Below are positions 6,691 through 53,141 of a DNA stretch of 64,000 nucleotides, piece after piece. The position numbers and the translations under genes were made by a program. Numbering within the stretch: position 1 is the first letter of the stretch; each line of letters begins with the position of its first letter. Source of the DNA: Verrucomicrobiota bacterium (GTDB lineage: Bacteria > Verrucomicrobiota > Verrucomicrobiia > Limisphaerales > AAA164-E04). The notes beneath the pieces were generated by a model that was not told where the DNA came from, did not search any database, and saw nothing but the letters and a program-made list of their open reading frames with translations. The stretch covers positions 3,456,001 through 3,520,000 of the forward strand of contig CP170459.1 of the NCBI GenBank assembly GCA_047947115.1, written 5' to 3'.

Positions 6691-6707
6691 ACATTTAGAC
6701 GCAAGCC

Positions 6708-9440
6708 ATGACTGAAAATACAGCCATCCTGAATGGACATGAAATCCGGTTTGAACCGGGGGATACCATTCTTACCGCCGCCGAACGCATGGGGGTCGAC
6801 ATACCGACCTTATGCCACGACCCTCGTCTCAAACCCGCCGGGGCTTGTCGTACCTGCCTGGTCGAAATTAAAAAGCGCCCCAAACTCGCGCCCGCCTGTG
6901 CCACAGCCTTGACGCCCGGGATGGAAATCGTCACGCACAATGAACGTATCGAACGTCATGTGCGGACCTTGCTGGCCTTGTATCTCACCGACCATGCCGT
7001 CCACGGGGAAGCATCGATCGTCAGCGAGCAGGGTACGGGCAACAAACTCATCGATTTGGCGCGGGCTTATGATGCGCCATTGGATTGGCCGTCGCTGGAC
7101 AATATCCGTAAAGGCCGTCCTGAGGATGTGAATCCTTATGTGACGTTCCAGCCGGAAAAATGCATCGCCTGCGCGCGCTGCACCCGTTACTGCGCCGAGG
7201 TGGAAAGCGTCTCTGCCATCACCATGGCCGAACGCGGCAGTCGGACCACGGTTTTTACCGCCGATGGAAGATCCTTGATGGACACCACCTGTGAACTGTG
7301 TGGGGGATGCATCGATACCTGTCCGACCGGTGCCATGACGGAAAAGAAACCTCTGCTCGCCCGGGTGGATTCCTCCAAAACACTGAAAAAGGTCCGCACA
7401 ACCTGCAATTACTGTGGCGTAGGATGTCAGATGGATCTGAATGTCGATCCGGATGGCAATGAGGGACGCGGCAAAGTGGTCAAAGTCACGAGCCCGCCTC
7501 CAGGAACCACCACCAATGACGGCAACCTGTGTGTGAAGGGGAGATTTGCCTACGATTTCATTGATCACAACGAACGCCTCACGACGCCTCTTGTGCGCGG
7601 GGAAGACGGTAAATTGCACGAAGCCACTTGGGATGAAGCTTATCGCAGGGCGGCAGAAGGATTGATCAAGGTGTCCACTCAGCATGGACCGAATGCCCTG
7701 GGTTTTGTTTCCTCTTCCCGGTGTACGATGGAGGAAAATTACCTGATGCAGAAAATGTCCAGGGCGGTGTTCCACACGAACAACGTCCATCAGTGCGCGG
7801 CGACGTGACACGCTCCCACAGTGGCCGGTCTGGTCACTACCTTTGGTGCGGGTGCGATGACAAACTCGATTAATGAGATCCGAGGAGCAGATTTTCTGTT
7901 CGTGATCGGCAGCAACACGACCGAGGCTCATCCCATCATTGCGATGGAAATGAAGCGAGCGGTGCATCGTGGCGCGAAGCTGGTGGTGGCGGATCCGAGA
8001 TCGATTGATCTGACACGACTTGCTCATCGTCATCTCAAACTGACGCCAGGAACGGACGTCTGGTTGTTGAACGCCATGGCGCATGTGATCCTGGTGGAAG
8101 ATCTCATTGATCCGGTTTTCATTGAGCAACACACCGAAAATTTCGAAGCCATGAGGGAAGAGGCTTTGAAATATCCTCCCGAAGAAGCGGAAAAAGTGAC
8201 CGGCGTGCCTGCCGAGGACATCCGTGCGACGGCGCGTGAATACGCAACAACAGACAAGGCCGGGATCTATTACACGCTTGGCATCACGGAACACACCCAT
8301 GGTACGGACAACGTCTACTGCCTGGCCAACCTGGTGCTCATGACCGGACATTTGGGAAAACCTTCCTCCGGTATGAATCCGTTGCGTGGGCAGAACAATG
8401 TTCAGGGTGCGAATGATGCGGGTGCCACACCTATTTTTTATCCGGGTTATCAACGTGTGGATGATCCGGAAGTGCAGGCCAAGTATGAGGCTGCGTGGGG
8501 AACCGAGCTTTCGCCCGAACCGGGATTGAATCTTAATGTCATGATGAAAACCCTGGGCAAGGGCATCAAGGGGATGCTGGTCATGGGCGAGGACATCGTC
8601 ATGTCCGAACCCAATACCGCCAAGCTCGAAGCGGGTTTGAACAACATGGAATTTCTGGTGGTACAGGACATCTTTCTGAACGAAACAGCACGTTTTGCAG
8701 ATGTTGTTTTTCCTGCTTCTTGCTTCGCCGAAAAAGACGGCACCTTCACCAATTCCGAACGACGAGTTCAGCGTGTCCGTAAAGCGGTGGAACCACCAGG
8801 GGAAGCCAAGGCCGATTGGTCGATTCTGCAAAATCTTGCCAACGCATGTGGCGCGGGGTGGAATTACCGTCATCCGTCTGAAATCTATGCCGAACTGGCA
8901 CGCTATGCTCCACGGTTCAGTGGGATCAGTCATGATCGCATCGAGAAGGAGGGTGGGATTCAATGGCCTTGTCCAGATTCCTATCATCCTGGCACGACCT
9001 ATCTTCACAAAGGCGGCGTGCTGAGGGGGAAGGGATTGTTTACGCCCGTCACTTATCGTCCTTCAGCTGAACTGCCAGATCAGGACTTTACCTTGATTTT
9101 GTCCACAGGGCGCACGCTGTATCACTACAATGCTGCGACCCAGACACGCAGGGAGCCTGGACCTCATGGTAAACAACCGGAAGCATTTGTTCAGATTCAT
9201 CCAAAGGATGCGGGGCGTCGTTCCATTGAACATGGGGCGAGTGTGGAAGTGAGATCCAGGCGCGGGACCATTCAGGCAAAAGCTGTCGTGACACGGGATG
9301 TGCGTCGCGGATGTGTCTGGATGCCTTTTCATTTTGCCGAAGCCAAGGCCAATACCCTGACCAATGATGTCGGGGATGTGATTACCGGGACGGCCGAATA
9401 CAAGGTCTGTGCCGTGGAAGTGGCGGCGGTCCATGTGTGA
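6708..9440 (+). CDS. fdhF: Formate dehydrogenase alpha subunit (Mo/W-bisPGD), selenoprotein, 910 aa, Sec367 encoded by TGA 7806-7808
   Basis: ORFs 6708..7808 and 7821..9440 are in frame: NNVHQCAAT-TGA-HAPTVAGLVTTFGAGAMTNSI. N-terminal Fe-S domains, TTCNYCGVGC...LCVKG, LRGQNNVQG and EKDGTFTNSERRVQ. Confidence 0.95.
7820..7838 (+). promoter_or_regulatory. SECIS hairpin of fdhF
   Basis: AGTGGCC-GGTCT-GGTCACT beginning after an 11-nt spacer from the TGA, like the E. coli fdhF SECIS geometry. Confidence 0.9.
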
Positions 9441-29279: not shown

Positions 29280-31085
29280 ATGAATTCCCGACTCAACTTG
29301 GCGGTTATTTGTACATTATTGTCGCGATCCCTGCAACAGTTGGCGCTGCTTTGTTTTTCTCTGTTGATTGCGTGGAGCCCCTTCCTCAGCTCGGCCCAAG
29401 AGCACGTGTTGCATTCCTTCGAATCGATCCGCCTTACGGACACCTATTTTTCGGAAGGAGCCAATGCTGGCGATCTGAATCAGGACGGACATCCTGACGT
29501 GGTGTATGGTCCATATTGGATTGAAGGTCCCGATTTTGAAAAAAAGCATGCCATATACGAAGCGGTTCCCCAACCGATGGAAGCTTATGCGGATCATTTT
29601 TTTGCATGGGTTTATGATTTCAATCGGGATGGGTGGGATGACGTGTTTGTGGTCGGATTTCCGGGCAAGCCAGCCTATGTTTATGAAAATCCAGGCAAAC
29701 TTAAGCAGGATGAATACTGGCCCAAACATGAAGTTTTTGATTCAGTGGGGAATGAATCTCCCCATTTTACTCAAATCGTAGGAGATGAAGTGCCCGAGTT
29801 GATTTGCACTCATCGCGGGATTTTTGGATACGCAACATTTGATTCGAGCAAACCCTTTGAAACATGGACGTTTCATCCCATTTCAGGTCGTATCACTGCC
29901 ATGCAGTTTGGGCACGGTCTGGGGGTGGGGGATGTGAACGGGGATGGTTTGTTGGACGTGATTTACCCGGGTGGCTGGTTTCAGCAACCTTCATCGAATG
30001 ACGGAGAGGGCCTTTGGACCCAACATAAAGCTTCCTTCTCAAACTCATACGGCGGGGCCGAAATGTATGCTTACGATGTCGATGGTGACGGGGACAATGA
30101 CATCATCACCAGTCAGGCGGCTCACGATTTCGGGCTTGCCTGGTATGAGCAGATAAGAGGTCCGGGTGAAGAAGTGATTTTTGAGGAACGATTGATCATG
30201 GGGTATCGCTCGGACCAGAATAAGTACGGGGTGGTGTTCAGCGAGCCGCACTCGGTAAATCTGGTGGATATGGATGGGGACGGTCTCAAGGATATTGTAA
30301 CCGGAAAAACCTATTACTCACATCATGAAAAGAGTCCGCTCTGGGATGCCGGAGCGGTTGCTTATTGGTTTCGTTTGCAGCGTACTCCTGAGGGGGTTGA
30401 TTGGATACCCTACCTTGCAGCGAGCGATACGGGGATAGGAAGGCAGGTGTCGGTGTCGGATGTCAATAAGGATGGATTGCCCGATATCGTTGTGGGAGGT
30501 ATGAAGGGAAGCCATGTTTTGTTACACCGTGTACGGAAGGTGGCTCCCGAAATCTGGCAGAAAGCGCAGCCGGAAGTTTATCAGTCGAAAGGCTACGTGC
30601 CGGCAGGAAGGAAGGAAGTGCCGGTCAATGCCCGGACCGGTTTGGCAGAGCACGCTTTAGAAGCGGAGTCCATTAGGATTGCCGGGCTTACCGCAGGCAA
30701 GGTTGTCATCCAGGATATGTCCAGCTTTCATGCCGACCGATGGAGCGGAGGTAAGCAGCTTTTTTGGTCCGGAGCCGAACCTAGGGCCAGGTTGCATCTG
30801 GAATTTGAGTTGGATAAGGCGGGGAATTACCAAATTGGAGCCAGCTTCACCACGGCGCGTGATTATTGTATCATCAATGTGTTGCTTGATAACAGGGCAT
30901 TGACCGAACCGATTGATCTGTTCGGGTATCCCGATGTGGAAACCACCGGGTTGCTCGAATTCGGTAGGCAGTCTCTGGAGGCCGGCAAACACCGGTTGAC
31001 TTTGGAAACCATCGGCATCAATCCTGCCGCGACCAAATACTACATGGTGGGAATGGATTTTTTAAGTTTGAAGCCAGTGGATTGA
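29280..31085 (+). CDS. Secreted FG-GAP/VCBS repeat protein with a C-terminal carbohydrate-binding-like domain
   Basis: Repeated DxNxDG motifs (GDLNQDG, DFNRDG, GDVNGDG, DVDGDG, DMDGDG, DVNKDG); C-terminal EAE...WSGGKQLFW beta-sandwich. Confidence 0.85.
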   Translation: MNSRLNLAVICTLLSRSLQQLALLCFSLLIAWSPFLSSAQEHVLHSFESIRLTDTYFSEGANAGDLNQDGHPDVVYGPYWIEGPDFEKKHAIYEAVPQPMEAYADHFFAWVYDFNRDGWDDVFVVGFPGKPAYVYENPGKLKQDEYWPKHEVFDSVGNESPHFTQIVGDEVPELICTHRGIFGYATFDSSKPFETWTFHPISGRITAMQFGHGLGVGDVNGDGLLDVIYPGGWFQQPSSNDGEGLWTQHKASFSNSYGGAEMYAYDVDGDGDNDIITSQAAHDFGLAWYEQIRGPGEEVIFEERLIMGYRSDQNKYGVVFSEPHSVNLVDMDGDGLKDIVTGKTYYSHHEKSPLWDAGAVAYWFRLQRTPEGVDWIPYLAASDTGIGRQVSVSDVNKDGLPDIVVGGMKGSHVLLHRVRKVAPEIWQKAQPEVYQSKGYVPAGRKEVPVNARTGLAEHALEAESIRIAGLTAGKVVIQDMSSFHADRWSGGKQLFWSGAEPRARLHLEFELDKAGNYQIGASFTTARDYCIINVLLDNRALTEPIDLFGYPDVETTGLLEFGRQSLEAGKHRLTLETIGINPAATKYYMVGMDFLSLKPVD

Positions 31086-39267: not shown

Positions 39268-40806
39268 ATGAAAAAACGGTTCTTTTGGGTGTTTCTGATG
39301 TGTTGGTGTTTTGTCGTGAAGTCTTTCGCAACGGATAAGAACTTCTACGGCATTCGAGCGGTGGATGCTCAAACCAAACGTGGAGTTCCATTGATAGCAT
39401 TAAAGACCGTGCACCATGTTTCTTATTGGACGGATAGCTTGGGGTATGTGGTGGTGGACGAACCCGGGTGGTATGATCGGGAGGTTTACTTTTATGTGAG
39501 CGGTGATGGATATGAGGTGGCCACGGATGGCTTCGGATATCAAGGAGTGCGCCTGAAACCCAGGGCTGGTCAAATCGATGAAATCGTCGTCCGACGCACT
39601 CAATTGGCTGAGAGGATGTATCGCATCACGGGTGCGGACAAATATCGAAATGCGCAGTTGCTGGGGATTGATTTGCCTTATGAGAGTTCATGGCCGGATG
39701 GAAATGTGGTCGGCCAGGATTCCGCCCAGGCAAAGGTTTATAATGATCGCATATATTGGTTCTGGGGAGATACGTCGATTTTTCGATATCCTTTGGGCAA
39801 TTTTAGAACTGCAGGGGCTTATTCCCTGAAATCCGGGCAAGGTGGTCTTTCACCGGCTCAAGGGATTTTGTTGAACTATTTCGTTGACGAAAACGGAACG
39901 AACGCCGGGATGTGTCCGATGCCTCCGAATGGAAATCTGATTTGGATCGATGGATTACTGGTGGTGAAAGATGCAAATGGTAAAGAAAGAATGGTGGCGC
40001 ACTATTCCAAGCGAAAATCATTGTCGGAACAAATGGAACATGGCCTGGTTGTTTTTGATGATACGACCCAGCGATTCGGGTTGTTGAAAACATTCGAACA
40101 GGAAAATACTTGGCAACATCCCCGAGGGCATCCGATACGTGTTGCTTTTCCCGAGGGTGATTTCTTTGTTTTCGGAGATGTATACTATCACATCCGTGTG
40201 CCGGCTGATTGGGAAGCTGTTCAGGATCCAAACCAATATGAAAGTTTCGGACCGGACGATAGTGGTTCGTTGCATCTTCAATGGCGAAAAGGCAAACCGC
40301 CTCTGACGGTGAAACAAGAGCGAGCAGGCATTGATTCAGCTTCCATGCCTGAGGGCGACGCCTGGTTGCAGCCGAAGGATGTGATGACAGGGATGCCCAT
40401 CGTTCTCCACCGTGGCTCCGTTCGGTGGAACAAGCATCGTCAAATGTATATCATGATTGCCAATCAGATCGGTGGTGACTCCATGTTGGGTGAGGTTTGG
40501 TATGGAGAAGCCTCACGCCCGGAAGGTCCATGGCAAAAGGTAATCAAGGTGGCAAGTCACGCAGACTATTCCTACTACAATCCAGTGCACCGTGAATTCT
40601 TCGATCAGGAAGGCGGACGGATGATTTACTTTGAAGGCACCTACGTGACGACCTTCTCAGGAAATGAGCATCCCGTGCCACGTTACGATTATAATCAATT
40701 GATGTATCGCCTGGATCTGGATCATCCGGGTTTGGCCGATGTGCGACAGGCCTATGACGAGCGAGGCCAGAATGGTCGGGGTGTCACTTGCTCTCCGGCT
40801 GAATGA
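39268..40806 (+). CDS. Conserved hypothetical secreted protein (possible beta-propeller)
   Basis: 512-aa ORF with a signal peptide and motifs AERMYRITG, YWFWGDT, YFEGTY, RYDYNQLMYRLDL. Confidence 0.75.
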   Translation: MKKRFFWVFLMCWCFVVKSFATDKNFYGIRAVDAQTKRGVPLIALKTVHHVSYWTDSLGYVVVDEPGWYDREVYFYVSGDGYEVATDGFGYQGVRLKPRAGQIDEIVVRRTQLAERMYRITGADKYRNAQLLGIDLPYESSWPDGNVVGQDSAQAKVYNDRIYWFWGDTSIFRYPLGNFRTAGAYSLKSGQGGLSPAQGILLNYFVDENGTNAGMCPMPPNGNLIWIDGLLVVKDANGKERMVAHYSKRKSLSEQMEHGLVVFDDTTQRFGLLKTFEQENTWQHPRGHPIRVAFPEGDFFVFGDVYYHIRVPADWEAVQDPNQYESFGPDDSGSLHLQWRKGKPPLTVKQERAGIDSASMPEGDAWLQPKDVMTGMPIVLHRGSVRWNKHRQMYIMIANQIGGDSMLGEVWYGEASRPEGPWQKVIKVASHADYSYYNPVHREFFDQEGGRMIYFEGTYVTTFSGNEHPVPRYDYNQLMYRLDLDHPGLADVRQAYDERGQNGRGVTCSPAE

Positions 40807-43800
40807 TCTGAAGCGGGTTGGTGAAGCGATCGTTTGTGATTTGGGAAAGTGTTCCGTCCGGCCATCGTACGTCAACTTGCTGTAATTTGTCTGGTGACGT
40901 GGCAAACAGAGTCGGGGAAGATTGGCTGAGGTAGCCGTTTCCGGCATAGATTTCGCGAACTTCTGTTTTTCCGGAAGTGTGCCGGATGGTGATGCGTGAT
41001 CCAATGCCATGCTGATTTCCCGGTCTGCCCAGGAGCCGGATGCCGAGTGGTTGCGATCCGTAAACGGCCTGGTTGATGAATGCCAACAAACGATCGTTGT
41101 TCTGGGTGGCGACCAGATCAGGCCAACCATCCGCATTCAAATCCGTAATCGCAAGACCCTTTCCATCGCCACCGACTTGAAAGCCGGTTTGTTCGAAATC
41201 CTGGATTTGAAAAACTCCATTGGAATCAAATACGCCAGAAAAACCAATGCCGCCGCGCCATAAACCGGTTTCGGGTTCCCGGGTGTAGAAGTTTTGAACG
41301 CCATAGTAGTCGAGTTGACCGTTTCCATCAAAATCGGACACCACGGTTCCATAGCCAGGCGAGGCTTGAATCAACCGAGGAAAGGCTTTCCAATCAAACG
41401 AACCCTTGCCGCCATTGATGAGGATGCCCGACTCGAAATGATTGGCCAAATACTGCCGGGCTGAATTGAGTTGGTTCACCGGGTAGATCTCATTGAGTTT
41501 TGACGATGCAAATTGACGAAAAGTCGGAAACTTCTCTCTCAACCAGGGCATGACCCCTCCTGCAAAACTCAAGCCACGAACAGGAAGGTATCCTTGGTCT
41601 CCTTTGTGAACCTCGATCAGGAAAGGGCGATTGGTTTGATCCATCGCACCATAAAGCAGGATGGCGGGATTGTTTTGACTGGCTGTTTGATACTTCGTGT
41701 TCAAACCGACGTTCATGACCACATAATCCATGTCGCCGTCTTTGTCCACATCCGCGCCGTTGATGACGTTCCACCAACCCAGGCGCCCGGAAAGCTTTCG
41801 GTTTTCGGTTTCGTCCGCCAGTTTGCCGTTGTGGTTTGCAAAGCATTTCACTGGTCCCCATTCAAGTGTGAGCATCAGGTCGAGGGTTCCGTTGGAATCC
41901 GTGTCCGTCCAAAGCGCCGAGGTGACCATTCCGACGGACCGAAGGCCGGGGGCAATTGTGTCCGTGACATCTACGAAGCGTCCACCTTCGTTCCTCAGTA
42001 ACCGGCTTTCCGGAGTGGTCGGGTAATGGGCTGGAACGACGCGTCCTCCGATGAACAGATCCAGATCTCCATCGGCATCAAAATCTGCAGCGACTGCGGG
42101 GCCGCTCGAGATTGGTTTTTGGGGGAGCACCTCTTCAGGAGCCACGGTAAATTTGCCTTTCCCGTCATTCAGGTAAAGCCGATCATTCAAGACGGGATCT
42201 CCCGGGTTGCATTCCACACCGCCACTGGAGACGAACAAGTCAAGATCTCCGTCCAGATCTACATCCAGCCACAAGGGCGCCATGTCTTCGTGGCGTTGGT
42301 GGGAGTTGAAAATGATTTGATTATCAGTGTCTTTTTCAAAATGTCCCGGGCTTATCTGGATAAAAAGAGCTCCGGGCTGTCCGGATGCACCCGCCAGATA
42401 GACGTCTTCGTCTCCGTCACCGTCCACATCTCCCCAGGCCATGCCTCCCCCGAGTTGCGAATGTTTGGACGGTAATAAAGGCTGACGTTGCCGGTCTTCA
42501 AAAATCGTCTCCTGATGTTTGAAATCGAGACCGATCTGCCGGCTCATTTCGATGAAGCGTTTTCGAGGCCTTTCTGTCGTTGGAGCGGCTTGTCGGGTGG
42601 TGGTTTCTTCAATGGTGTAACGCAGGTTTGTTTGCAGGTTGGTGAAAACCTGCTGAACGCCGCTGGGCCAGTTGACGGTCAATTTGCTGATAGTCTTCTC
42701 ATTTCCCAGTCCAAAATGCAGACTTGGTTCGTTGCTGGCCAGGAAACCTGTCATGGGATTGAGCTGTCGAATCTGAGTGCCCAGCTTTTCACTCTCCACA
42801 TGAACAACGGCCCCCAGGCCATACCGATTACTTGGAGTTCCTTTCAGTCGAATGGTGATACGGTTTCCGGAATGGCTGTTGTTTCTGTAAATGCCGACGG
42901 GTTCATTGAGGTCTGCGGTCACCAGGTCCAGGTCGCCGTCCCCATCGAGGTCTCCATAGGCTGCCCCATAACTCATGCCCATATGATCCAGACCCCATGC
43001 TTTGCTGGTATCTTTAAAGATCAGGTCTCCATGGTTTTTAAAAGCGAAATTCTGTTCCCTGAGAGGCGGTGTGTCTTTCCAAAGGTCCCATTCGGTTTTT
43101 CCTATCAGCATGGAAAGTGATATGGGCATGTCGGCGTCGGTTGACATGCGGGATGCGCCGTTGGTGGTGAACACGTCAACCCGGCCATCGTTGTCAAAAT
43201 CCGCCAACTTGATGGCCCAGGTCCAGTCGGTCGCTGCCAGGTTTGCCATGAATGCGACTTCCATGAACCGATCGGTTCCAGTATTCAGGTAAAGCGTGTT
43301 GTGCGATGTTTGACGTGGCCAGACATTTTCCAGAAACCACCGGCGATCGCCCATTTCGCCATTGCTGATGTGCCATTTGTAATGTGTGGTGGCCATCATA
43401 TCCGCACTCATGAAATCAAGCCGCCCGTCGTTGTTCAGATCGGCACAGTCAGCACCCATGGAAGACCAGGTCGTGTAAGGCATCACATCGGCAATGACAT
43501 CTGTGAAAGTCCCGTCGCCATTGTTGCGGTAAAGATGATCCGGATCCGTGAAATCATTGCCTACATAGAGGTCGATTTTGCCATCCGAGTTGTAATCCCA
43601 CCATGTAGCCGAAAAACCGTGACCGTTTTCTGTGATGCCTGCCTGGACGCTGACATCGGTGAACGTGCCGTCCCCGTTATTGCGAAACAAACGGTCAGGG
43701 CGTCCGCAGGTATCCGCAGTGTAGCTGTTGGGACCGGTCTGGCGCAGGTGATAATACTTTTCGTGCTCCGCTAGGATGTAGGGGCGGCCGTTTTTAAATC

Positions 43801-44521
43801 CAACGGGCGGTTTTTGGGGGCGGCCGCCGGGACGAACATACCGATAGGTCAACACAAAGACATCCAGATCACCGTCATTGTCGTAATCGGCAAAAGTCGG
43901 AAAGATACTGGCATCTACCATGTCCAGACCGCAGGCAGCGGCAGATTCGGTGAATGGTTTCCCTGCGCCCTGATTGATGAAAAGTTGATTGGGGGCGTCA
44001 TAATTGCAGACATAGATATCCAGATCTCCATCGTTATCGATGTCTGCCATGGCCGTTCCCGCTCCCCATCGATCCTCACCCGATGTGTTGGATGCTTCGG
44101 TCATGTCCTTGAACTTAAAAGGTGTCTCCTGAATGTAGAGTCGATTGGATTCAGGTGCGTTGACAAGGTAAAGGTCGGGTTTTCCATCACCATTGACATC
44201 GCCGATTGCGATTCCTCCGCATACGGAGCCTGCGTAATTCAGGTAGCTCTTGGGATGGTCCAGGATCATGTTGTTGGAGAAATGCACGCCGGTGTCATCT
44301 GGCAGTAATCGTTCGAACAATGTGGCGGCAGAGATTTTTTGCGACCGGGGTGACAGGGGGGCTTGATGGATTGTGCCATTTGACATGTCCGCAGATTGCA
44401 TGGAACTCACTGCAAGACAGCATCCAAACAGAACCCCTGCGACGAAGAACCAGTCAACCAAGCAAGAACGTTCCCCGGTGGGGAGGGGCGTGAGATGCTG
44501 CCTGGTCAAATGAAGATTCAT
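40784..44521 (-). CDS. CRTAC1-like FG-GAP repeat protein with two ASPIC/UnbV domains
   Basis: Many DxDxDGDLD repeats; ASPIC-like GFLASNEPSLHFGLG...VNWPSG and GNGYLSQS...VRWPDG. Start moved to ATG 44521 because the track start lies inside the repeat array. Confidence 0.88.
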   Translation of the reverse strand: MNLHLTRQHLTPLPTGERSCLVDWFFVAGVLFGCCLAVSSMQSADMSNGTIHQAPLSPRSQKISAATLFERLLPDDTGVHFSNNMILDHPKSYLNYAGSVCGGIAIGDVNGDGKPDLYLVNAPESNRLYIQETPFKFKDMTEASNTSGEDRWGAGTAMADIDNDGDLDIYVCNYDAPNQLFINQGAGKPFTESAAACGLDMVDASIFPTFADYDNDGDLDVFVLTYRYVRPGGRPQKPPVGFKNGRPYILAEHEKYYHLRQTGPNSYTADTCGRPDRLFRNNGDGTFTDVSVQAGITENGHGFSATWWDYNSDGKIDLYVGNDFTDPDHLYRNNGDGTFTDVIADVMPYTTWSSMGADCADLNNDGRLDFMSADMMATTHYKWHISNGEMGDRRWFLENVWPRQTSHNTLYLNTGTDRFMEVAFMANLAATDWTWAIKLADFDNDGRVDVFTTNGASRMSTDADMPISLSMLIGKTEWDLWKDTPPLREQNFAFKNHGDLIFKDTSKAWGLDHMGMSYGAAYGDLDGDGDLDLVTADLNEPVGIYRNNSHSGNRITIRLKGTPSNRYGLGAVVHVESEKLGTQIRQLNPMTGFLASNEPSLHFGLGNEKTISKLTVNWPSGVQQVFTNLQTNLRYTIEETTTRQAAPTTERPRKRFIEMSRQIGLDFKHQETIFEDRQRQPLLPSKHSQLGGGMAWGDVDGDGDEDVYLAGASGQPGALFIQISPGHFEKDTDNQIIFNSHQRHEDMAPLWLDVDLDGDLDLFVSSGGVECNPGDPVLNDRLYLNDGKGKFTVAPEEVLPQKPISSGPAVAADFDADGDLDLFIGGRVVPAHYPTTPESRLLRNEGGRFVDVTDTIAPGLRSVGMVTSALWTDTDSNGTLDLMLTLEWGPVKCFANHNGKLADETENRKLSGRLGWWNVINGADVDKDGDMDYVVMNVGLNTKYQTASQNNPAILLYGAMDQTNRPFLIEVHKGDQGYLPVRGLSFAGGVMPWLREKFPTFRQFASSKLNEIYPVNQLNSARQYLANHFESGILINGGKGSFDWKAFPRLIQASPGYGTVVSDFDGNGQLDYYGVQNFYTREPETGLWRGGIGFSGVFDSNGVFQIQDFEQTGFQVGGDGKGLAITDLNADGWPDLVATQNNDRLLAFINQAVYGSQPLGIRLLGRPGNQHGIGSRITIRHTSGKTEVREIYAGNGYLSQSSPTLFATSPDKLQQVDVRWPDGTLSQITNDRFTNPLQIIQPESK

Positions 44522-44589
44522 GATCTGGTCCGCGTATTTTATGGAGAGCATCAAGTGCAACAAGGATTTTCCGGTCAAGTCCAAGAAAT

Positions 44590-45855
44590 TGGAGGGTCCA
44601 GCGCCTGCTTGAACCCACTTCGGACCTTGTGGCGTTTGAGGGCCGGTCATTGTTCCGTGGAAAAGCTGTTGGCGATCGAATCGCTGTGGTCTGCCCGCGT
44701 TCCGGTTGCTTTGCTCAGGGGGGAGGTAAAGGGGTAAGTATGGGAACGGGGTGGCACCCGTCCCTCCGTTGTAAACAATGGAGGGTCAAGCGCCTGCTTG
44801 AACCCACTTCGGACCTTGTGGCGTTTGAGGGCCGGTCATTGTTCGGTGGAAAAGCTGTTGACGATCGAATCGCTGTGGTCTGCCCGCGTTCCGGTTGCTC
44901 TGCTCAGGCGGGTGGTAAAGGGGTAAGTATGGGAACGGGGTGGCACCCGTCCCTCCGTTGTAAACAATGGAGGGGCAAGCGCCTGCTTGAACCCACTTCG
45001 GACCTTGTGGCGTTTGAGGGCCGGTCATTGTTCGGTGGAAAAGCTGTTGACGATCGAATCGCTGTGGTCTGCCCGCATTCCGGTTGCTTTGCTCAGGGGG
45101 GAGGTAAAGGGGTAAGTATGGGAACGGGGTGGCACCCGTCCCTCCGTTGTAAACAATGGAGGGGCAAGCGCCTGCTTGAACCCACTTCGGACCTTGGGGC
45201 GTTTGAGGGCCGGTCATTGTTCAGTGGAAAAGCTGTTGGCGATCGAATCGCTGTGTGCTGCCAGCGTTCCGGTTGCTTTGCTCAGGGGGGAGATAAAGGG
45301 GTAAGTATGGGAACGGGGTGGCACCCGTCCCTCCGTTGTAAACAATGGAGGGGCAAGCGCCTGCTTGAACCCACTTCGGACCTTGTGGCGTTTGAGGGCC
45401 GGTCATTGTTCCGTGGAAAAGCTGTTGGCGATCGAATCGCTGTGGTCTGCCCGCGTTCCGGTTGCTTTGCTTAGGGGGGCGTAAAGGGGCAAGTATGGGA
45501 ACGGGGTGGCACCCGTCCCTCCGTTGTAAACAATGGTGGGTCAAGCGCCTGCTTGAACCCACTTCGGACCTTGGGGCGTTTGAGGGCCGGTCATTGTTCT
45601 GAGGAAAAGCTGTTGGCGATCGAATCGCTGTGGTCTGCCCGCGTTCCGGTTGCTTTGCTCAGGGGGGTGGTAAAGGGGTAAGTATGGGAACGGGGTGGCA
45701 CCCGTCCCGCCGTTGTAAACAATGGAGGGGCAAGCGCCTGCTTGAACCCACTTCGGACCTTGGGGCATTTGAGGGCCGGTCATTGTTCGGTGGAAAAGCT
45801 GTTGCCGATCGAATCGCCGTGGTCTGCCCGCATTCCGCTTGGCGTTGCTCAGGCG
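44590..45855. repeat. Tandem array of ~6.7 copies of a 189-bp REP-like unit
   Basis: Anchor gcgcctgcttgaacccac starts at 44601, 44790, 44979, 45168, 45357, 45545 and 45734 (period 189, one 188). Confidence 0.97.
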
Positions 45856-45940: not shown

Positions 45941-48832
45941 TTACTCGGCAATGTAGAACTGGGCAGCCTGATCAGGAGACACCGAGTAAGGTGAGGTGGC
46001 TCCGGCCACTGCACTGTAACTTCCGTTGACAGTGGCAGAGGATTTCAGTGTGCCAGTGAACTCAATGACAACGCTTCCGTCTTGCAGTGCGACTGAGCTG
46101 ATGGAACCGCCACCGGTGCTACCGCCACCGATTTCGGTGTCGAAGTCCCAGTGAGCCACCAGGCTTGCAATGTCAGCAGGAGAACCGCCGCCGGCGATGC
46201 CCTTCAATTCTGCTTCAGTCAATGCCTTGGAGAAGATCGCGAAGTCATCATAGACAGCGCGGTCTTTGTTGCCAAGGTCAGCTGCAGAACCAATGAACAA
46301 ACCGGTCACATCGGCGGTCAGCGGATCTGCATCCACACCATCGAGGAACAATTCGCCATCAATACGGATTTCCTTTACGCCACCCTTCTTGGAGAAGGAA
46401 TACAAGTGCCATTCGCTCGTGAAGTCAGGATTGTCATCGAAATCAGCGAGCGGAGCATTGATGCGTTGACCAGGAGATGCACAGCAGCCCTGGGTGTCGA
46501 AGTAGATCTGACCGTTACTCCAAGGCAAGTGAGCTTGGAATCCACGGTTTCCGGAACCAGCGGAGTTCGCGATCCAGACTGCTGAGTTGTTGGCGATCGT
46601 GTGCTTCTTGCTCCACAATGCAACGGTGATTTCGTCGGCAGCGAACAGCGGGTTCAACCAATCGTACTCGGTTACGATAACGGAACCGCCTTCAGGGGTC
46701 AGGTCAAGACCACGATCACCAGGTTTGCCAGAGCGTCCTTCACCATCAGCTGTGGAGACGGCGTTGCCGATCACCAAGCCAGGGTATCCACCGACGTTGT
46801 CCAAAGTAGGACCGCCGTATGCCAGGATGCTGAAGCTCCAATCCATGGTGGCAGGATCGCCAACAGGATCTGGATAGGTCAGCGTAACGTTCACGGTTTG
46901 ACCGGAAGGCCAAAGCTCGGTTGGGGTGTAGGTCAGGGTGGCCACTTTGCCTTCGAGGTTCAAGCTTGTTTCGACCTCGGTGCCGTTCACTGACAGGCTG
47001 GTGTTAGCATTCGTCCAAGCAACAGGACCGTTGTTGTGCACCACGGTGATGCCAGTTGTGGCAGGATTGCGGTCCGTTGCGCCATCAGCAGGAGTGATCG
47101 TGCCGAAGGAACCACCAGGAGGTGTGAGCTGAGGTGTAGCAGAGCTCAGGAACTTGCCAGGAATAGGCTGCAAGTTGGCTGCAGGGGTGTCGTCGTTGAC
47201 GTTACGCCAAGCAACCTGGGCGAAGTCGCCGCCGCCGCCCTCTTTGTAGAGAACCTGGATGAAGTATTTTCTGCCCGCGGTCATGGAGATCGGGGTGAAG
47301 GTGGTTTGATCGGCACCCACTTCTAGGAAAGCGTTACAGCAACCAGGCTCTTCAGCTTGGAATTGCAGGTTGGCTTCATCGTCGTCTGTGCTGATCCACA
47401 ATTCGGAAGCGTCGTCCGAACGCAGGAAGAAGTCGTATTCGCCGGTTTCTTCAGGAGTGATCCAACCTTCGATGACAGCACCATAGTTGTCGTTGCTGTC
47501 ATTCGGGAAGATATCACGGCTGTTGAATGAGAAAACAGGTCCCATGAAATCCCAGTCGTTGGGATAGCGACCATCGTCAAACAGACCGACAACAGGAGTT
47601 CCACCGATACCATACCAGGCTTTGAAGGTCAGGATGCCTTCGGTGCCTTCCACACAGGTGTAGATCTTGCCGCCTGAGTTGTCAGGGATGCTGTTTTTGG
47701 ATTCATCCGTGATGTTGGAAGCAGTGACAGTGTAGCTGGAAGCTGGATTCTGCCGAGCGGTGACGATTGTAATCACACCCTTTTTGTGGGTGATGCTTTC
47801 AATGGCCACAGAGGGGTCAATGGTATAGTTACCAGGATCTGTTGCAGATGCTTCGTCCAATTTTTCGGAGAAGGTCATCGTGATGGTGTTCAGGGAACAA
47901 TCGGTCTCCACAGACACGAACGCAGGATCGGTTGTATCGTTGGGATCGGTTCCTTTTTCGAACTCGGCCAAGTTGTTGTCTCCATCGCCATCAGGATCCG
48001 TGGTGGCATCCGAAGCGTCATTGATATCGAACCCGAACTGCTCTTCCCAGTAATCAGGCAGACCATCGCTGTCAGTGTCAACAGGAGCCTGGAAGGGGGA
48101 TCCACCATTGACTAAGAGTTGGATTTCTTCCTGTGTCAAAGCACCTTTGAAGATGGCGAAGTCGTCAATGATTCCATCGGGCTGATTTTCGTCACTTGCT
48201 GCACCGATGAACAATTGAGTCACGTCGGTGGAGAGTGGTGTTGCATCGTCAGACTCAATCAGGATTTGACCGTCGACATAAACTGTTTTGCGCCCTTCGT
48301 CTTTGACAAAAGCGTAGTGATGCCATGTTTCGGCCCAGTCAATGTCCGGAGCAGCATTGACACGTTGTGTGCCTGCTGCACAACAGCCCATGGTGTCAAA
48401 GTAAATGTTCCCGTTGGACCATGGAATGTGGAACTGAAAATGACGCCCTTGAGTTTCTGATACTGCCCAGAAGCTACTGCTGTCGATATTGGAGAAGTTT
48501 TTCTGCCACACGACGATGGATACTTGATCCTCCTCAGCTGCGAGATTCATGGGGTTGTCTTCGCCTTCCGCTTCAAGCAAAAGGTAACCGGCGTTCGCCT
48601 CGGAGACATCAAAACCGTTGCCGCCTCCGTTAGGACGACCATCGCTCACGACTTGAGCGTCTCCGACGATGATTCCGGTGTATTTGCCGTCGGCCGAACG
48701 GAGTTCATCCCCGTTTGGTTGCGAATTAAAGTCCCATCCGGTCACCAATTGGGCCGCATGGACTTGCGCTGTTGTAGCTCCAGCAGAAGCCAATAAGGCG
48801 ACTGCGAGCCATTTTGTTAATTTATTTCTCAT
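45941..48832 (-). CDS. Secreted LamG / TSP3-like / Ig-like / PA14 / LamG protein
   Basis: Signal peptide, two LamG domains (FQxHxPWSNGxIYFDTxGCC), DTDSDGLPDYWE Ca-binding repeats, PA14 NYG...GWITP...RSDDASELW...KEGGGGD. Confidence 0.88.
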   Translation of the reverse strand: MRNKLTKWLAVALLASAGATTAQVHAAQLVTGWDFNSQPNGDELRSADGKYTGIIVGDAQVVSDGRPNGGGNGFDVSEANAGYLLLEAEGEDNPMNLAAEEDQVSIVVWQKNFSNIDSSSFWAVSETQGRHFQFHIPWSNGNIYFDTMGCCAAGTQRVNAAPDIDWAETWHHYAFVKDEGRKTVYVDGQILIESDDATPLSTDVTQLFIGAASDENQPDGIIDDFAIFKGALTQEEIQLLVNGGSPFQAPVDTDSDGLPDYWEEQFGFDINDASDATTDPDGDGDNNLAEFEKGTDPNDTTDPAFVSVETDCSLNTITMTFSEKLDEASATDPGNYTIDPSVAIESITHKKGVITIVTARQNPASSYTVTASNITDESKNSIPDNSGGKIYTCVEGTEGILTFKAWYGIGGTPVVGLFDDGRYPNDWDFMGPVFSFNSRDIFPNDSNDNYGAVIEGWITPEETGEYDFFLRSDDASELWISTDDDEANLQFQAEEPGCCNAFLEVGADQTTFTPISMTAGRKYFIQVLYKEGGGGDFAQVAWRNVNDDTPAANLQPIPGKFLSSATPQLTPPGGSFGTITPADGATDRNPATTGITVVHNNGPVAWTNANTSLSVNGTEVETSLNLEGKVATLTYTPTELWPSGQTVNVTLTYPDPVGDPATMDWSFSILAYGGPTLDNVGGYPGLVIGNAVSTADGEGRSGKPGDRGLDLTPEGGSVIVTEYDWLNPLFAADEITVALWSKKHTIANNSAVWIANSAGSGNRGFQAHLPWSNGQIYFDTQGCCASPGQRINAPLADFDDNPDFTSEWHLYSFSKKGGVKEIRIDGELFLDGVDADPLTADVTGLFIGSAADLGNKDRAVYDDFAIFSKALTEAELKGIAGGGSPADIASLVAHWDFDTEIGGGSTGGGSISSVALQDGSVVIEFTGTLKSSATVNGSYSAVAGATSPYSVSPDQAAQFYIAE

Positions 48833-49078: not shown

Positions 49079-52000
49079 TCAGGGCTGCATTGCAGGCAGT
49101 GTGAATGCCCTTTTCTGGCGATATCCATTCACTCGTTGCTGGATCTGTGTGGTTTGCTGGCTTCCGGATGGAAGATGTTGCAATGCTCTTTGGGCTGTTC
49201 GTATGGCCAGATCAAATTGACCATCGGCTGCATAGGCCGCGGCGAGGACATCCAATGTTTCCGGCGCCTGGTTTCCGGTTTGCTCGCATGCCTTCCTGGC
49301 AAGCTGAATGGCTTGAGAGGGGCTCAACAGTTCCGGCTCCGGAGCAGTTGCCAACAGCCATCCCAAAGCAGCGGTGGCTCTCAAATGTTCCGCATCCATC
49401 TCCAGAACCCGGCGATAGTCGGCCATCGCAGATTTGAACCGTCCCGAGGACTGGAAAAACATGGCTCTCGCGTATGGGTGTTCGGTGTCGTGTGGCGCGA
49501 GTCTGATGGCTTCGTTGAATAATTCTTCCGCCAAGGAAACATCAGAGGTCGAGGCTTCCATTGCCGCATTTCTGCAGAGAAGGGATGCCCTTTCTTTTTC
49601 GCCTGGATGGATCAGCTCTACCTTGGCCAGGTAGTCGGCCAAATCGGAAAAGCGTTTCTTTTCTCCCAGGATGGTTGCCAGAGCCAAATGGTCGGGAGGA
49701 TAGGGTTCCACATACCATCTGCCTGCATAGGGAACCGCGTGCTGCCGGTCATGACCTTGGCGGAAAAGTGTTTGGGTGTCTGTGGTCAGGGTGTCCAATG
49801 TCGGGCTGCCTTCGTAAAATGCCAGCAATCTGTTTTCTTCATCGAGCAGGAGGGAGCAGGGGATGGACCAGGTCCATTGTCTGCCAAGGATGGTTTCACG
49901 CGCGGCATCTGCAATTTCCATCAATGAAGAGGTTGCCAACCCGCTGTTCAGGGTCCAGTTTTGGCGGCGCCACATGCGCTGCACGGTGCTCATTCGCTCA
50001 GGCGACGGTTTGTTCAGGTCATCCAGGTTCAGCGGTAAAATATCCAATCCCTGCTTGGACAGGTTTTCTTGATGCCGGTTGAGCTGGGTGAGTTCCTGGA
50101 CGCATGGCAGACACCAGGTCGCCCACAGGACGATCAACTTCCTTCGGCCAGTGGCGGTTAACTGTTTGTCAGTCCCTTCTTTATCCACGTAAGAAATCGT
50201 TGGCAAGGGCAAGGGACTGTGAGGAATCATTCTACTGACTTTTGGTGCGGGCAAATCCGGGGCTTTGGACGGTATCAGGTTCTGCCGGATTCGGGGCGAG
50301 CCCAGCGAGGTGGGTTCAGCCTCGTTTTGAGTCAGTTGCAGGAGCGTTGCGTTTGCCGGAGGTGTCCAGGATTGGTTCCGACCATTGGGCCAGCGCACTT
50401 TGATGGTTGATACGGAGCCGTCCGTCCCCAGGCCGAAATGCAGGCTCTGGCTGGACTGTGCCAGGTAACCTTCACCGGCCCTCAAAGTGCGCACCTGACG
50501 TTGCCCGGCAGCATCAACAACCTCGACTCTTGATCCGATTCCATGCCGGTTGCCATTGAGACTTTGCAATTGGATGCGGAGGGATTTTGCTGCCGAATGA
50601 TTGTCGTTTCGAAGAAATCTAAGCCGAGGTGCAGTGCGCTGAGTGATCCAGAGATCCAGATCTCCGTCATGATCCCAATCGACCAGAGCCATGCCCCGGC
50701 CGTCCGCAGGGGAATCAAATCCGGTCAAGGCAGACACCCCCGCAAATCTTCCATCCCGGGTGTTCAGAAAGGCGACGTTGCGTTCGTTTCCGCTCCAGTT
50801 ATGCCCGCTTTCGACCAGATCGGCGGTGGCTTCCCATGCGGCGAGGTAGCCGTCGGCCGAGTTTTCGGTCTGGTTGTTGGTGGGGGCTTCCTCCGGTGAT
50901 TGCGACGTGACCCGCCGCCAGAAGAAACTTCACAAATCCCCGGTATCGGGCGTACCGGTGACCATTCCATTTGCCACAATCAGGTCCTCCCACCCATCAT
51001 TATTGAAGTCGACAAAATTTGAACTCCATGCCCAGCGTCCGAGAGTGACACCCGCTTCCTCGCTGACATCCAGAAAGGTTCCGTCCCCCTGGTTTGAAAA
51101 CAGGCTGTTTCCTCTGGCGTGTCGTTGAAACCCGGATGCATCCTGTCCGTCGCGGTAACGGCGCTGAAATGCGATGCGATTGCCCGCCGAGGAGAACATG
51201 TTTCCCACATAGAGGTCCATCCAGCCGTCGCGGTTGAAATCCCCCCAACTCACCGACATGCCCGCTGACAAATCTTCCACGCCTGCTTGTGCGGCGATGT
51301 CGGTGAAGTGACCTCCGTCATTGCGATACAAATTGTTTCTTCCAAAATCATTGGCAACGTACAAATCAGGATCCCCGTCATTATCAAAATCCTCCCAAGA
51401 AGCGGCGTAGCTGAATCGTTGGTTGTTCTGATTCAATCCTGTTTCGGTCGTGACATCGTCAAACTGCCATCGCCGGTTTCGAAGCAGGAAGTTCTGCACG
51501 CCATTGTTTGCGTCGTGGTAGGGCATGGGGCGTCCCAGACCTAACCGGTCTCCGGATCGATCATAGTAGCCGCACAAAAAAACGTCCAGCAGACCGTCCA
51601 CGTCATAATCGATGGCTGAGATTGAGCGTATGATGGAGTTCGAAGAGAATTGAGTGCGTCGTTCGAAATGTCCCGTTCCATCATTGGCAAAGAACAGGAC
51701 ATGGCGACCGGATGCCATGACCAGATCCAGATCTAGATCATTGTCCAGATCCACCAGCAGCGCGCTGGCGGTGGGTTCCAGATAATCCAGCCCTGCTTCC
51801 GCTGACGCATCCAGGACGGTACCATCTTTGTTTTGCATCAGCAGTCGATTGGGCAGGCCTCCAGGTTCGCAGACGTAAAGATCTTCCAATCCATCCCCGT
51901 TGACATCGCCGACGGCCAGTCCGTGGGGGCCGGTGACGTCCAGCGTGAAACGCCAGTCCAAATGCTTTCGCCAATGATCGATGCCTCGGAGCAGTGGATC

Positions 52001-52825
52001 CTCCGAATCAGGTGTCCACCCCATGACCGATGCCGTGCAGTCGGCAAACCATGGCGTGTTCCGGTGCGGGGACGTGACTTCCTCATAATCCAGCACTCTG
52101 AGTTCGGTTAAAAGCGGTAGGCCTCCCGGTTTTTTCGCCTGCACCCAGGTACATTCCCAGGTTGCATGCTGCTGCAACGTCACACCGTTTCCGTGACCGT
52201 GAGATTCAACGATCACCACCGTCGTGCTGGTAACCTGGTCCACCGCCACTCGAACGGTTTTGAAATGCATGTCAAAATGCAGGAAAGGAGAATTGTCCGA
52301 TACGTTTATGGGAGATGTCAACTGGATCAACGCCTGTGTGAATCCCGATTGGTTTTGGAAAGCTTTCGGGGCATCGGATGGTTGATTTCTCCGATGCCGC
52401 CAAACTTTGAGCGTGCCATCGTCGAAGCTGAGGGCTTGAGGAGAGGGGCGCAAGGCATCTCCGCTGAAACTGTCGTTGATCATATCGGCCAGGTGCTCCT
52501 GCAGGGCCCGGTTGCCTGCGTGCATGGCCTTGTTCATCTGTTTGAACTGGATGCCTGTTGCGTCGTTGATGACTTCGGTCACCCAGCCATCTGCTCTGGG
52601 GTCGAGGTGCTCCATTTCCCGCGCCACTTCGGGTGCGACCTTCGATTCCGTCAATCCCAGAATTGGAATCGAAGTTTCGCTGACAGGTGACTCCGCTGCC
52701 TTTGCACGAAGGTTGCCAGATCCAATCAACAGGCAGCAAACGAGGGCAAATAGTAACCTGCCCCAGGGCATCCGTGTTTCAGCATGACGGTTCTGATGGA
52801 GGATACTTCTATGGGATTTGTTCAT
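49079..52825 (-). CDS. Secreted FG-GAP/ASPIC-UnbV - TlpA-like redoxin - TPR protein, 1248 aa, with an in-frame TGA (putative Sec632) at 50932-50930
   Basis: ORFs 50930..52825 and 49079..50737 are in frame and joined by 64 stop-free codons (SFFWRRVTSQSP...NWSGNERNVAFLNTRDGRFAG) that continue the FG-GAP pattern. Downstream are ASPIC (GEGYLAQS...HFGLG...VRWPNG), WATWCLPC and TPR repeats. Confidence 0.8.
50888..50926 (-). promoter_or_regulatory. Putative SECIS of the FG-GAP/ASPIC gene
   Basis: After the TGA and an 11-nt spacer: GCGGCG-GGTCA-CGTCGC (50918-50902), with a possible lower stem TTCTTCTG/CGGAGGAA. Confidence 0.7.
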
Positions 52826-53141
52826 ATCTGGTGTGCGGGCATTCTACCGAGGTCTGCTTTTCATTCAAGTTCGAAACTTTACCCCCATGGCAAGGGGATA
52901 CTTGGGGTGGGGCGGGTGCTGATGGGGACTGACATTTCTTTGTTTGATGGATTTGGTCTTGAGGGTGATCCGGATAAAAGTGATTACAGAAATGAACTGA
53001 TCGCCCACTGTGGCTTAAACATGGACATTTTCTGGTAACCTTCAGTATGATTTTCTCATCACTAATCTAAGTATACTCGAATTCGGGGCAATCTGGATTC
53101 CCGTGAGGCAAGTGGCGGTTTATTTGGGTGGTGCATGTTAT

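Follow-up and report, generated by a model that had tools for sequence, protein, structure and literature searches.

A large, probably exported FG-GAP propeller protein that very probably contains selenocysteine and keeps a fused CxxC redoxin

When a stretch of 64,000 nucleotides from a Verrucomicrobiota bacterium (GenBank assembly GCA_047947115.1, contig CP170459.1, positions 3,456,001 to 3,520,000; the window) was analyzed, a gene on its reverse strand at 49079-52825 was found to be interrupted by a single in-frame stop, a TGA at 50932-50930 (codon 632). Comparison with its homologs leaves very little doubt that this codon, TGA632, is decoded as selenocysteine (Sec). Read-through gives 1248 residues, called here the Sec propeller protein, with an FG-GAP beta-propeller, an ASPIC domain, a redoxin with a CxxC motif and TPRs. 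By its in-frame UGA, conserved across organisms, the gene very probably belongs to the bacterial class that depends on SelB and a selenocysteine insertion sequence (SECIS). The decoding route is ordinary. Unusual features are the protein scaffold, how rare Cys homologs are, the number of copies and the link to a fused CxxC. The family is widespread, uncatalogued and was once flagged before.

Reading frame and SECIS hairpin

TGA632 divides the gene into two called open reading frames (ORFs), 50930-52825 (631 aa) and 49079-50737 (552 aa), and its translated context is ...NGMVTGTPDTGDL*SFFWRRVTSQSP.... The downstream ORF is called from a GTG equal to residue 697, within a propeller strand, and 64 open codons separate it from the TGA. 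At the 5' end, Met1 and Met19 are both possible starts. In three estuarine runs, RNA contigs that come from a slightly different strain extend across TGA632 and cover the gene; they indicate presence only, not the codon at 632, and DNA contamination of the libraries is possible. The contigs end at 52801-52820, and 52862-53048 is uncovered in all four runs.

A stem of GCGGCG/CGUCGC with the loop GGUCA begins eleven nt past TGA632. The Sec codon of the formate dehydrogenase alpha gene, fdhA, in the same window (TGA 7806-7808) is followed by an 11-nt spacer and a 7-bp stem with the loop GGUCU, and the UGA-to-loop distances are 18 nt (fdhA) and 17 nt (Sec propeller gene). The frame analysis thus bore out the original prediction of one frame broken by a single TGA, with 64 open codons before a GTG start, and the predicted hairpin, with its near-fdh geometry, was also found. 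When the bacterial SECIS (bSECIS) criteria were applied directly (a loop of 3-9 nt, a stem of 4-16 bp, G in loop positions 1-2, spacing 16-37 nt, at most -7.5 kcal/mol), the hairpin lay within all of them (5-nt loop, 6 bp, GG, 17 nt, -9.0 kcal/mol). The 35-nt fold after TGA632 had a z of -2.0 and 5 of 200 shuffles were equally good, so that fold energy of the hairpin alone is modest evidence for a SECIS. An Rfam gathering scan of the 64-kb window gave no match.

Among 612 stops of the source genome with at least 150 open codons on each side, a SECIS-like hairpin (at most -7.5 kcal/mol) followed 5/294 TGA and 0/318 TAA or TAG codons. The five include the Sec propeller gene, fdhA and a redoxin with a UxxC motif. 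A strong hairpin after the TGA at C1:847169 was rejected as recoding since it marks an ordinary gene end, and the fifth hairpin-bearing TGA showed no sign of a read-through gene. The redoxin, at C1:5420377 (-), is a second probable selenoprotein of a known kind, exported, with VFASW-U-AGC and a hairpin. A TGA at matching positions of long open frames was also seen in two near-identical repeats at C1:5357427 and 5356134 (-); these look antisense to a repeat protein and probably involve no recoding.

Related genomes and sequences are not independent in any of the conservation or co-occurrence counts given here. When copies sharing the same amino-acid motif were compared, all six stem pairs formed in 155/168 TGA copies versus 4/72 sense-codon copies. 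In 143 distinct rows, 98.2% of cells were paired. Double changes numbered 60, where shuffles gave 8.0 and sliding the partners gave no more than 3. One stem pair ranges over A-U, G-U, G-C, C-G, U-G and U-A, altering the encoded residue. Two limits apply to these counts: part of the 5' arm and, for one pair, the purine/pyrimidine class were set by the search pattern itself, and the shuffle tests are inflated by related sequences. The bSECIS model has an N1-N2 loop pair (PMC13188914, Fig. 2A legend). Correspondingly placed loop positions 1 and 4 pair in 136/142 TGA copies (GGUC, CGUG, AGUU) versus 11/72 sense copies; permutation gave a mean of 107 and a maximum of 117 of 142. Taken from these alignments, the hairpin is apparently under selection in TGA copies only. 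A longer lower stem predicted at TGA632 was rejected, its flanking pairs forming in only 14-24% of TGA copies.

Distribution of the TGA and residues replacing Sec

A paralog in the source genome, C1:5559634, shares this TGA. Over the 200 residues around the site the two proteins are 52% identical, and the stem-closing pair shows a compensatory change. In metagenomes, all 120 pattern matches listed (of at least 120; 115 distinct, 37-75% GC) had TGA, although the pattern also allowed TAA, TAG, TGG, TAY and TGY. When any codon was accepted in species genomes, the 120 matches listed (of at least 120) had TGA (48), Asn (35), Ala (7), Gly (7, mostly Acidobacteria), Glu (6), Met (6), Ser (5), Asp (4), Tyr (1) and Arg (1); TAA, TAG, Trp and Cys were absent from these 120. 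The TGA copies were mostly from Planctomycetota, Verrucomicrobiota and Acidobacteriota. The base after UGA was A in 168/168 pattern-found TGA copies, Ser always being encoded by AGY and never by TCN. As AGY is also used by sense-codon copies and two further paralogs have G after UGA, this A is not Sec-specific.

A whole-genome search of the order of the source organism found 15 matches, all with TGA, in 9/251 genomes. In a second order, centred on an Akkermansiaceae metagenome-assembled genome (MAG) chosen as a carrier, 213 matches were found in 39/251 genomes, with up to 15 per genome; one TGA was present in all 150 listed of the 213, and 34 of the 39 carriers have a listed TGA match. A single-protein query of 300 other genomes drawn phylum-wide gave no match, with only few candidates scored, and the family is patchy.

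The aligned residues in the best 120 full-length proteins were D (27), S (22), N (19), E (13), G (9), C (7), L (6), A (5), H (5) and a few others, about ten of the weakest rows not being family members. The seven Cys proteins are scattered over 5 separate places in the tree, and Cys was found in 0/120 listed metagenome and 0/120 listed species-genome DNA matches. In Sec-less lineages, Sec is replaced mainly by the helix-capping residues Asn, Asp, Ser and Gly, and the aromatic residues and arginine around the site stay conserved. A tree built without the Sec site and without the redoxin showed 15 changes of Sec state, at least 11 of them on supported branches. Sense-codon copies are nested among TGA copies in this unrooted tree, which fits an old Sec with repeated loss.

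Selenium machinery

The source genome (6.08 Mb, 95.8% complete) has adjacent selA and selB, selD and tRNA-Sec (selC); its selD itself holds one TGA. In the second order, selA was found in 73/251 genomes, which comprise 39/39 carriers and 34/212 non-carriers, and none of the 178 selA-less genomes had the Sec propeller gene. Of the 46 TGA genomes of the pattern scan, 43 have selA; two of the other three have selB and selC, and one has selD and a partial selB. In G397 (L274:7279-12833), selC-selD-selA follows immediately after the Sec propeller gene, with selA cut by the contig end, and in G527 and G627 an apparent tail of the gene occupies the same place beside the sel cluster. The sel genes were thus found in the source genome and in other carriers, apart from one MAG, G477, in which selA, selB, selC and selD were all missing; its contig stops 480 bases past the gene, where relatives have the sel cluster. 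In genus g151 (L274, L276, L277) the gene was seen directly upstream of a selC-selD-selA-selB cluster, and selD has Cys in this genus and UGA in the source genome (G000).

We also considered termination at the TGA, as in two separate genes, a pseudogene or an assembly error, and its readthrough as Trp or Cys without Sec. Public gene callers split the gene (footnote to S9 Table of PMC4807772), 53/168 copies have an ATG 30-39 codons downstream, and the carrier MAG G477 has no sel gene found. However, TAA or TAG never replaces TGA (0/120 and 0/120 among the matches listed), Trp never occurs at the site among the listed proteins and species-genome matches, and 60/168 copies lack an ATG within 110 codons. 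Residues Y660, W664 and E681, beyond the hairpin and before any start, are conserved, and the export signal is on the first half only. Together with the hairpin covarying in TGA copies only and the absence of the gene from the 178 selA-less genomes of the second order, these observations have already largely refuted such a reading, which we regard as very improbable. The original prediction of Sec recoding by an fdh-type SECIS is instead sustained by the family-wide TGA and the covarying hairpin, and the TGA is not specific to one strain since it recurs in the paralog, in metagenomes and in two orders.

Predicted structure of the read-through protein

An AlphaFold2 model of residues 70-1248, with Cys in place of Sec, had a mean predicted local distance difference test (pLDDT) score of 92.8 and a predicted template modelling score of 0.91. 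In the model, residue 632 starts a helix in a two-helix insertion between strands two and three of blade 6. In propellers generally, loops between the second and third strands are on the face opposite the DxDxDG calcium loops, which is the usual ligand face. The conserved columns of the insertion (residues 632-672 region) read D-L-U-S-F-F-W-R-x-V-x-x-x-S-P ... Y-x-x-x-W. The many other ASPIC-type paralogs of the source genome lack the DLxSxxWR insertion. Foldseek gave murine CRTAC1 (9etn) as the best match for the propeller (E-value 9.7e-24; TM-score 0.71 over the target), and phmmer matched CRTAC1 with an E-value of 3.5e-18. The NTF2-like domain aligned to 3rob with a VIA-align Z of 12.2 (root-mean-square deviation 2.8, 129 aligned), many NTF2-like folds scoring Z 10-13. 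The redoxin contains WCLPC (C905/C908 at 50113-50102) and the conserved proline of the fold, P989.

A hydrophobic signal-like segment is present in 82 of 91 relatives with a complete N-terminus, 36 of which have a lipobox-like Cys, and the protein is likely exported, as judged from these N-termini. One long, probably exported protein with a fused CxxC (WCLPC) redoxin and TPRs had been predicted, and Pfam matches and the relatives agree with it. The position given for Sec held in part: it is outside any CxxU motif, but in the model it opens a helix of the blade 6 insertion and is not part of an FG-GAP repeat loop. A chain ending at residue 631 would lose half of blade 6 and nearly all of the rest of the propeller, most of blade 7, so a switch between long and truncated forms looks unlikely, as does a working 631-residue isoform.

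Association of Sec with the CxxC redoxin

In rows with enough flanking sequence, CxxC was present in 87/87 TGA copies, 20/125 copies with another residue and 2/5 Cys copies. Both cysteines and the redoxin proline are kept in all 87 Sec copies, and CxxC was found in 21/21 further paralogs. When 11 independent pairs were compared, CxxC changed in the same way as Sec 5.5 times on average and 0 times in the opposite way (median p 0.03). This pattern suggests that Sec needs CxxC and not the reverse, as a recycling relay predicts, and it supports the Sec/thiol tie of the original prediction. The non-Sec relatives, most of which lack CxxC, are probably non-redox binding proteins. A DsbD-type gene (DsbD_TM) is present in the source genome. 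A Cys at 684/685 was rejected as the resolving residue since it occurs in 51/87 Sec copies, is absent here and fails the independent-pair test.

LamG neighbours as candidate clients

The next gene downstream encodes a secreted LamG-PA14-Ig protein (45941-48832, -) with three vicinal Cys-Cys pairs (150/151, 498/499 and 783/784), two of them in YFDTxGCC; all three are conserved in G541. The paralog C1:5559634 also directly precedes a LamG gene with YFDTxGCC. Among 32 LamG ORFs of the source genome, 5 have Cys-Cys and 3 have YFDTxGCC, and two of these three follow the Sec paralogs. The gene pair recurs in G541 and, in another order, in G664 and G668; in G680 it is divergent, and there selA is immediately followed by a Cys-Cys LamG gene. 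In the second order, the only one in which non-carriers were compared, the Cys-Cys LamG motif was found in 26/39 carriers versus 9/212 non-carriers and 2/34 selA-positive non-carriers; it was also found in 8/9 carriers of the own order. We saw no family description for these proteins. As clients, the Cys-Cys LamG proteins are a lead and not a result.

The motif Y-[FW]-D-T-x-G-C-C (also GGNDKWCC and xEExGCC) was seen at 99 sites in 35/251 genomes of the order Verrucomicrobiales, and the LamG genes of the source genome that have it are the window gene, C1:5562100-5565054 and C1:2001956-2008090. The window LamG gene had very deep RNA contigs, far deeper than those of the Sec gene, though contigs cannot rank genes. 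No TGA variant of the Cys-Cys motif was found in 48 genomes; a TGA inside one LamG match of G869 was rejected as recoding since it lacks a hairpin. In four related metagenome loci (L033, L043, L063 and L068), the Sec gene has on its upstream side a divergent gene that by motif resembles a SCO-family copper chaperone; a TlpA-ScoI mixed-disulfide structure exists in the PDB.

Proposed function and alternatives

We propose that an extracytoplasmic Sec/CxxC relay makes, reduces or shuffles disulfides of cell-envelope proteins, possibly including the LamG neighbours; this reading has a little less than an even chance of being right. At the first step, SelB would bind the GGUC-type hairpin and deliver Sec-tRNA in a genome with selA, selB, selC and selD, and this step is the one of which we are nearly certain. 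The protein would then be exported and fold into an NTF2-like domain, a seven-bladed propeller, an ASPIC sandwich, a redoxin and TPRs, placing Sec at the N-terminus of a helix of the insertion, across the propeller from the face with the DxDxDG calcium loops. Going by the co-retention of Sec and CxxC, Sec may attack a substrate or be oxidised by it. C905/C908 may then restore it, and a DsbD-type membrane protein would in turn reduce these two cysteines. The last step, drawn from gene neighbourhood, is the weakest: the substrates would be exported proteins held by the TPRs and the propeller, with the Cys-Cys LamG proteins as first candidates. A bolder form, in which Sec came first and giant envelope selenoenzymes, recycled in cis, make or maintain the vicinal disulfides of abundant LamG surface proteins, is rather unlikely as it stands.

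A number of observations weigh against the proposed explanation. Relatives do not have a constant Cys at the site, D, S, N, E and G prevailing among the 120 listed proteins, and this residue spectrum would suit a helix cap as well as a catalyst. CxxC is retained in 20/125 copies with neither Sec nor Cys, and half of the independent pairs show no CxxC difference. In the own order, only 7/9 carriers have selA (background 90/251); of the other two, G397 has selC, selD and the cut selA, and the carrier MAG G477 has no sel gene found. In addition, selA is present in 41/50 sense-codon genomes covered by the search, out of 72 sense loci; as a control, this comparison was rejected as not discriminating. 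As for the clients, 7 genomes have the Cys-Cys motif with neither selA nor the Sec propeller gene found, 13 carriers lack the motif, and only 3 of 71 motif sites in carriers are within 6 kb of a listed Sec gene (counted by eye). No conserved neighbour or operon was found among 521 flanking ORFs, most copies having unrelated neighbours. LamG genes are common in these genomes (95 to at least 150 matches), and shared ancestry could produce the co-occurrence of motif and carriers.

Sec may also be real and serve as a ligand or sensor for a soft metal, metalloid or oxidant on a binding or adhesin propeller, CxxC keeping the selenol reduced. The replacements D, N, S, E, G, H, A and M include several metal ligands, the aromatic and arginine surroundings outlast Sec, the closest solved fold, CRTAC1, is not named an enzyme, and the Sec state changed at least 11-15 times on the tree, which shows the scaffold to be of use even where Sec is missing. 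However, none of the 87 Sec copies has lost either cysteine or the redoxin proline, which suggests turnover, and no second conserved soft ligand was found near the site, the patchy Cys 684/685 failing the pair test. We consider a ligand or sensor role unlikely.

An enzyme acting on small molecules (peroxides, sulfoxides, or halogenated or sulfur compounds of algal matter) in the NTF2-like pocket and on the propeller face, recycled by the redoxin, is doubtful to a similar degree. The NTF2-like domain is present, up to 15 divergent paralogs per genome suggest many specificities, and sulfatases, esterases and a peroxidase are among the scattered neighbours of family copies. However, no enzyme family was matched and no metabolic operon recurs. 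TPR arrays point to protein partners.

The vicinal thiols of the LamG proteins could instead bind selenite or a like ion, which the selenoprotein and its CxxC would release for uptake. Such a capture relay would account for the Sec gene directly upstream of selC-selD-selA(-selB) in g151, the Cys-Cys LamG gene directly downstream of selA in G680 and the deep RNA contigs of the window LamG gene (which, as said, cannot rank genes). However, co-transfer by itself would also place the gene beside sel genes, no transporter recurs nearby, the Cys-Cys motif has no TGA variant in the 48 genomes, and Cys-Cys LamG genes are found in 7 genomes where selA was not. This explanation is quite improbable, and the disulfide relay stays our preferred reading.

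Comparison with known systems and literature

Like other bacterial SelB/SECIS genes such as fdhA, the Sec propeller gene has a UGA and an in-frame hairpin in a genome with sel genes. The hairpin has a 17-nt spacing, a stem of 6 bp and a 5-nt loop that starts with G and then G/U and has a 1/4 pair. The gene differs in its host protein, a propeller of 1248 residues that is not a known oxidoreductase, with Sec in no listed motif. The protein matches no listed selenoprotein family: none of the selenoprotein models in NCBIfam 20.0 gave a hit, and Table 1 of a 2026 catalogue of 119 prokaryotic selenoprotein families (PMC13188914) has no FG-GAP, ASPIC or propeller entry. According to a passage of the same review, Cys homologs are as a rule far more abundant than Sec copies; the Sec propeller family contradicts this rule, its Sec copies outnumbering Cys copies. 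According to PMC12013277, the method of that study drops candidates without Cys homologs. No match for the family was found in the main text of PMC13326102 and the searched part of its supplement.

The family, which the original prediction did not know as a characterised one, had been seen before. The S9 Table of PMC4807772 (2016) lists four 'ASPIC UnbV; FG-Gap' selenoprotein candidates from two planctomycetes (P1 and P2), with a SECIS predicted in 3/4 and an Acidobacteriaceae protein with Gly at the site as the closest homolog. Judging from the same domain names, the split into two genes in IMG and the Gly homolog, they very probably are members of the same family. The relevant passages of that paper contain four table rows and no covariation, distribution, redoxin link or structure, and the site is presumably the same. 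Among the literature matches listed for selenoproteins with FG-GAP, ASPIC, CRTAC1, UnbV, VCBS or propeller, no paper was found to treat the family in its main text; recent lists (Haft and Tolstoy 2025; Deng et al. 2026) might mention it.

With CRTAC1 and other ASPIC/UnbV proteins it shares an FG-GAP propeller followed by an ASPIC beta-sandwich, with PF07593 above the cut-off. At 18% identity to CRTAC1, it differs in its NTF2-like domain, helical insertions in blades 5 and 6, Sec, redoxin and TPRs. The thioredoxin fold, WCxxC, conserved proline and probable export place the redoxin with TlpA, ResA and StoA at the domain level; whole-protein scores are far below the NCBIfam equivalog cut-offs for TlpA, ResA and DsbE (TlpA 47.7 of 230 bits). 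Unlike the catalogued UxxC and UGC selenoprotein forms of these thioredoxins, it keeps two Cys, and Sec is 273 residues away on another domain.

Features of the window

The coordinates are given in Table 1. A scan for promoter-like patterns found 5 sites versus 2.9 expected. The window region 5083-9440 (+) has a nuoEF-like gene followed by the Sec-containing fdhA, which is split into two called ORFs; an operon of this type is described for planctomycete P1 in a passage of PMC4807772. Two further FG-GAP proteins are encoded at 40784-44650 (-) and 29280-31085 (+), one of them with two ASPIC domains, and neither matched the Sec insertion motif.

Table 1 Features of the Sec propeller gene and its surroundings (positions in the window)
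Feature	Position	Strand	Remarks
Read-through gene	49079..52825	-	1248 codons, one internal TGA; full-length single-chain homologs have a sense codon at the site
Probable export signal	52694..52825	-	Hydrophobic at about residues 24-36, then AxA-like site (from sequence)
NTF2-like (SnoaL/cystatin-like) domain	52070..52594	-	Residues ~78-252; AlphaFold2 pLDDT 90.2
Seven-bladed FG-GAP beta-propeller, CRTAC1-like	50606..52048	-	Residues ~260-740; Pfam FG-GAP_3 x5, strand pattern of model
In-frame TGA, very likely Sec632	50930..50932	-	First residue of a helix
SECIS hairpin	50902..50918	-	Stem 50918-50913 with 50907-50902, 6 bp; loop GGUCA; 17 nt UGA-to-loop
Two-helix insertion, blade 6 strands B/C	50810..50932	-	Residues 632-672; DSSP H563-573, H585-603 (model numbering, +69)
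ASPIC/UnbV domain	50351..50542	-	Residues 762-825; Pfam PF07593, E-value 6e-18
TlpA/ResA-like redoxin	49760..50206	-	Pfam Redoxin above cut-off; Foldseek TlpA 1jfu, ResA 2f9s
TPR array	49118..49690	-	Pfam TPR_1/TPR_2/TPR_14; helical repeats in model
Promoter-like site TTGAAT-16-TAGAAT, just before Met1	52841..52868	-	Consensus match only
Secreted LamG-PA14-Ig gene, next downstream	45941..48832	-	246 bases off; candidate client or partner
Reference: fdhA Sec codon and SECIS	7806..7844	+	Same window

Significance

If Sec is confirmed, the 119-family catalogue lacks a large family whose genes are split in two by gene callers. Present in up to 15 copies per genome, this family would account for a major share of the selenoproteins of many Verrucomicrobia; Planctomycetes and Acidobacteria have it too. 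The family breaks the working rule of most selenoprotein searches, which expect conserved and more numerous Cys homologs, and further families may therefore have escaped notice in the same way. For the CRTAC1/ASPIC-UnbV fold, whose function is obscure, it would mark a reactive site and offer testable partners, namely its own CxxC and the Cys-Cys LamG proteins. Should the bolder form of the relay hold, it would represent a selenium-dependent system of protein maturation outside the cytoplasm that is invisible to searches for Cys/Sec pairs.

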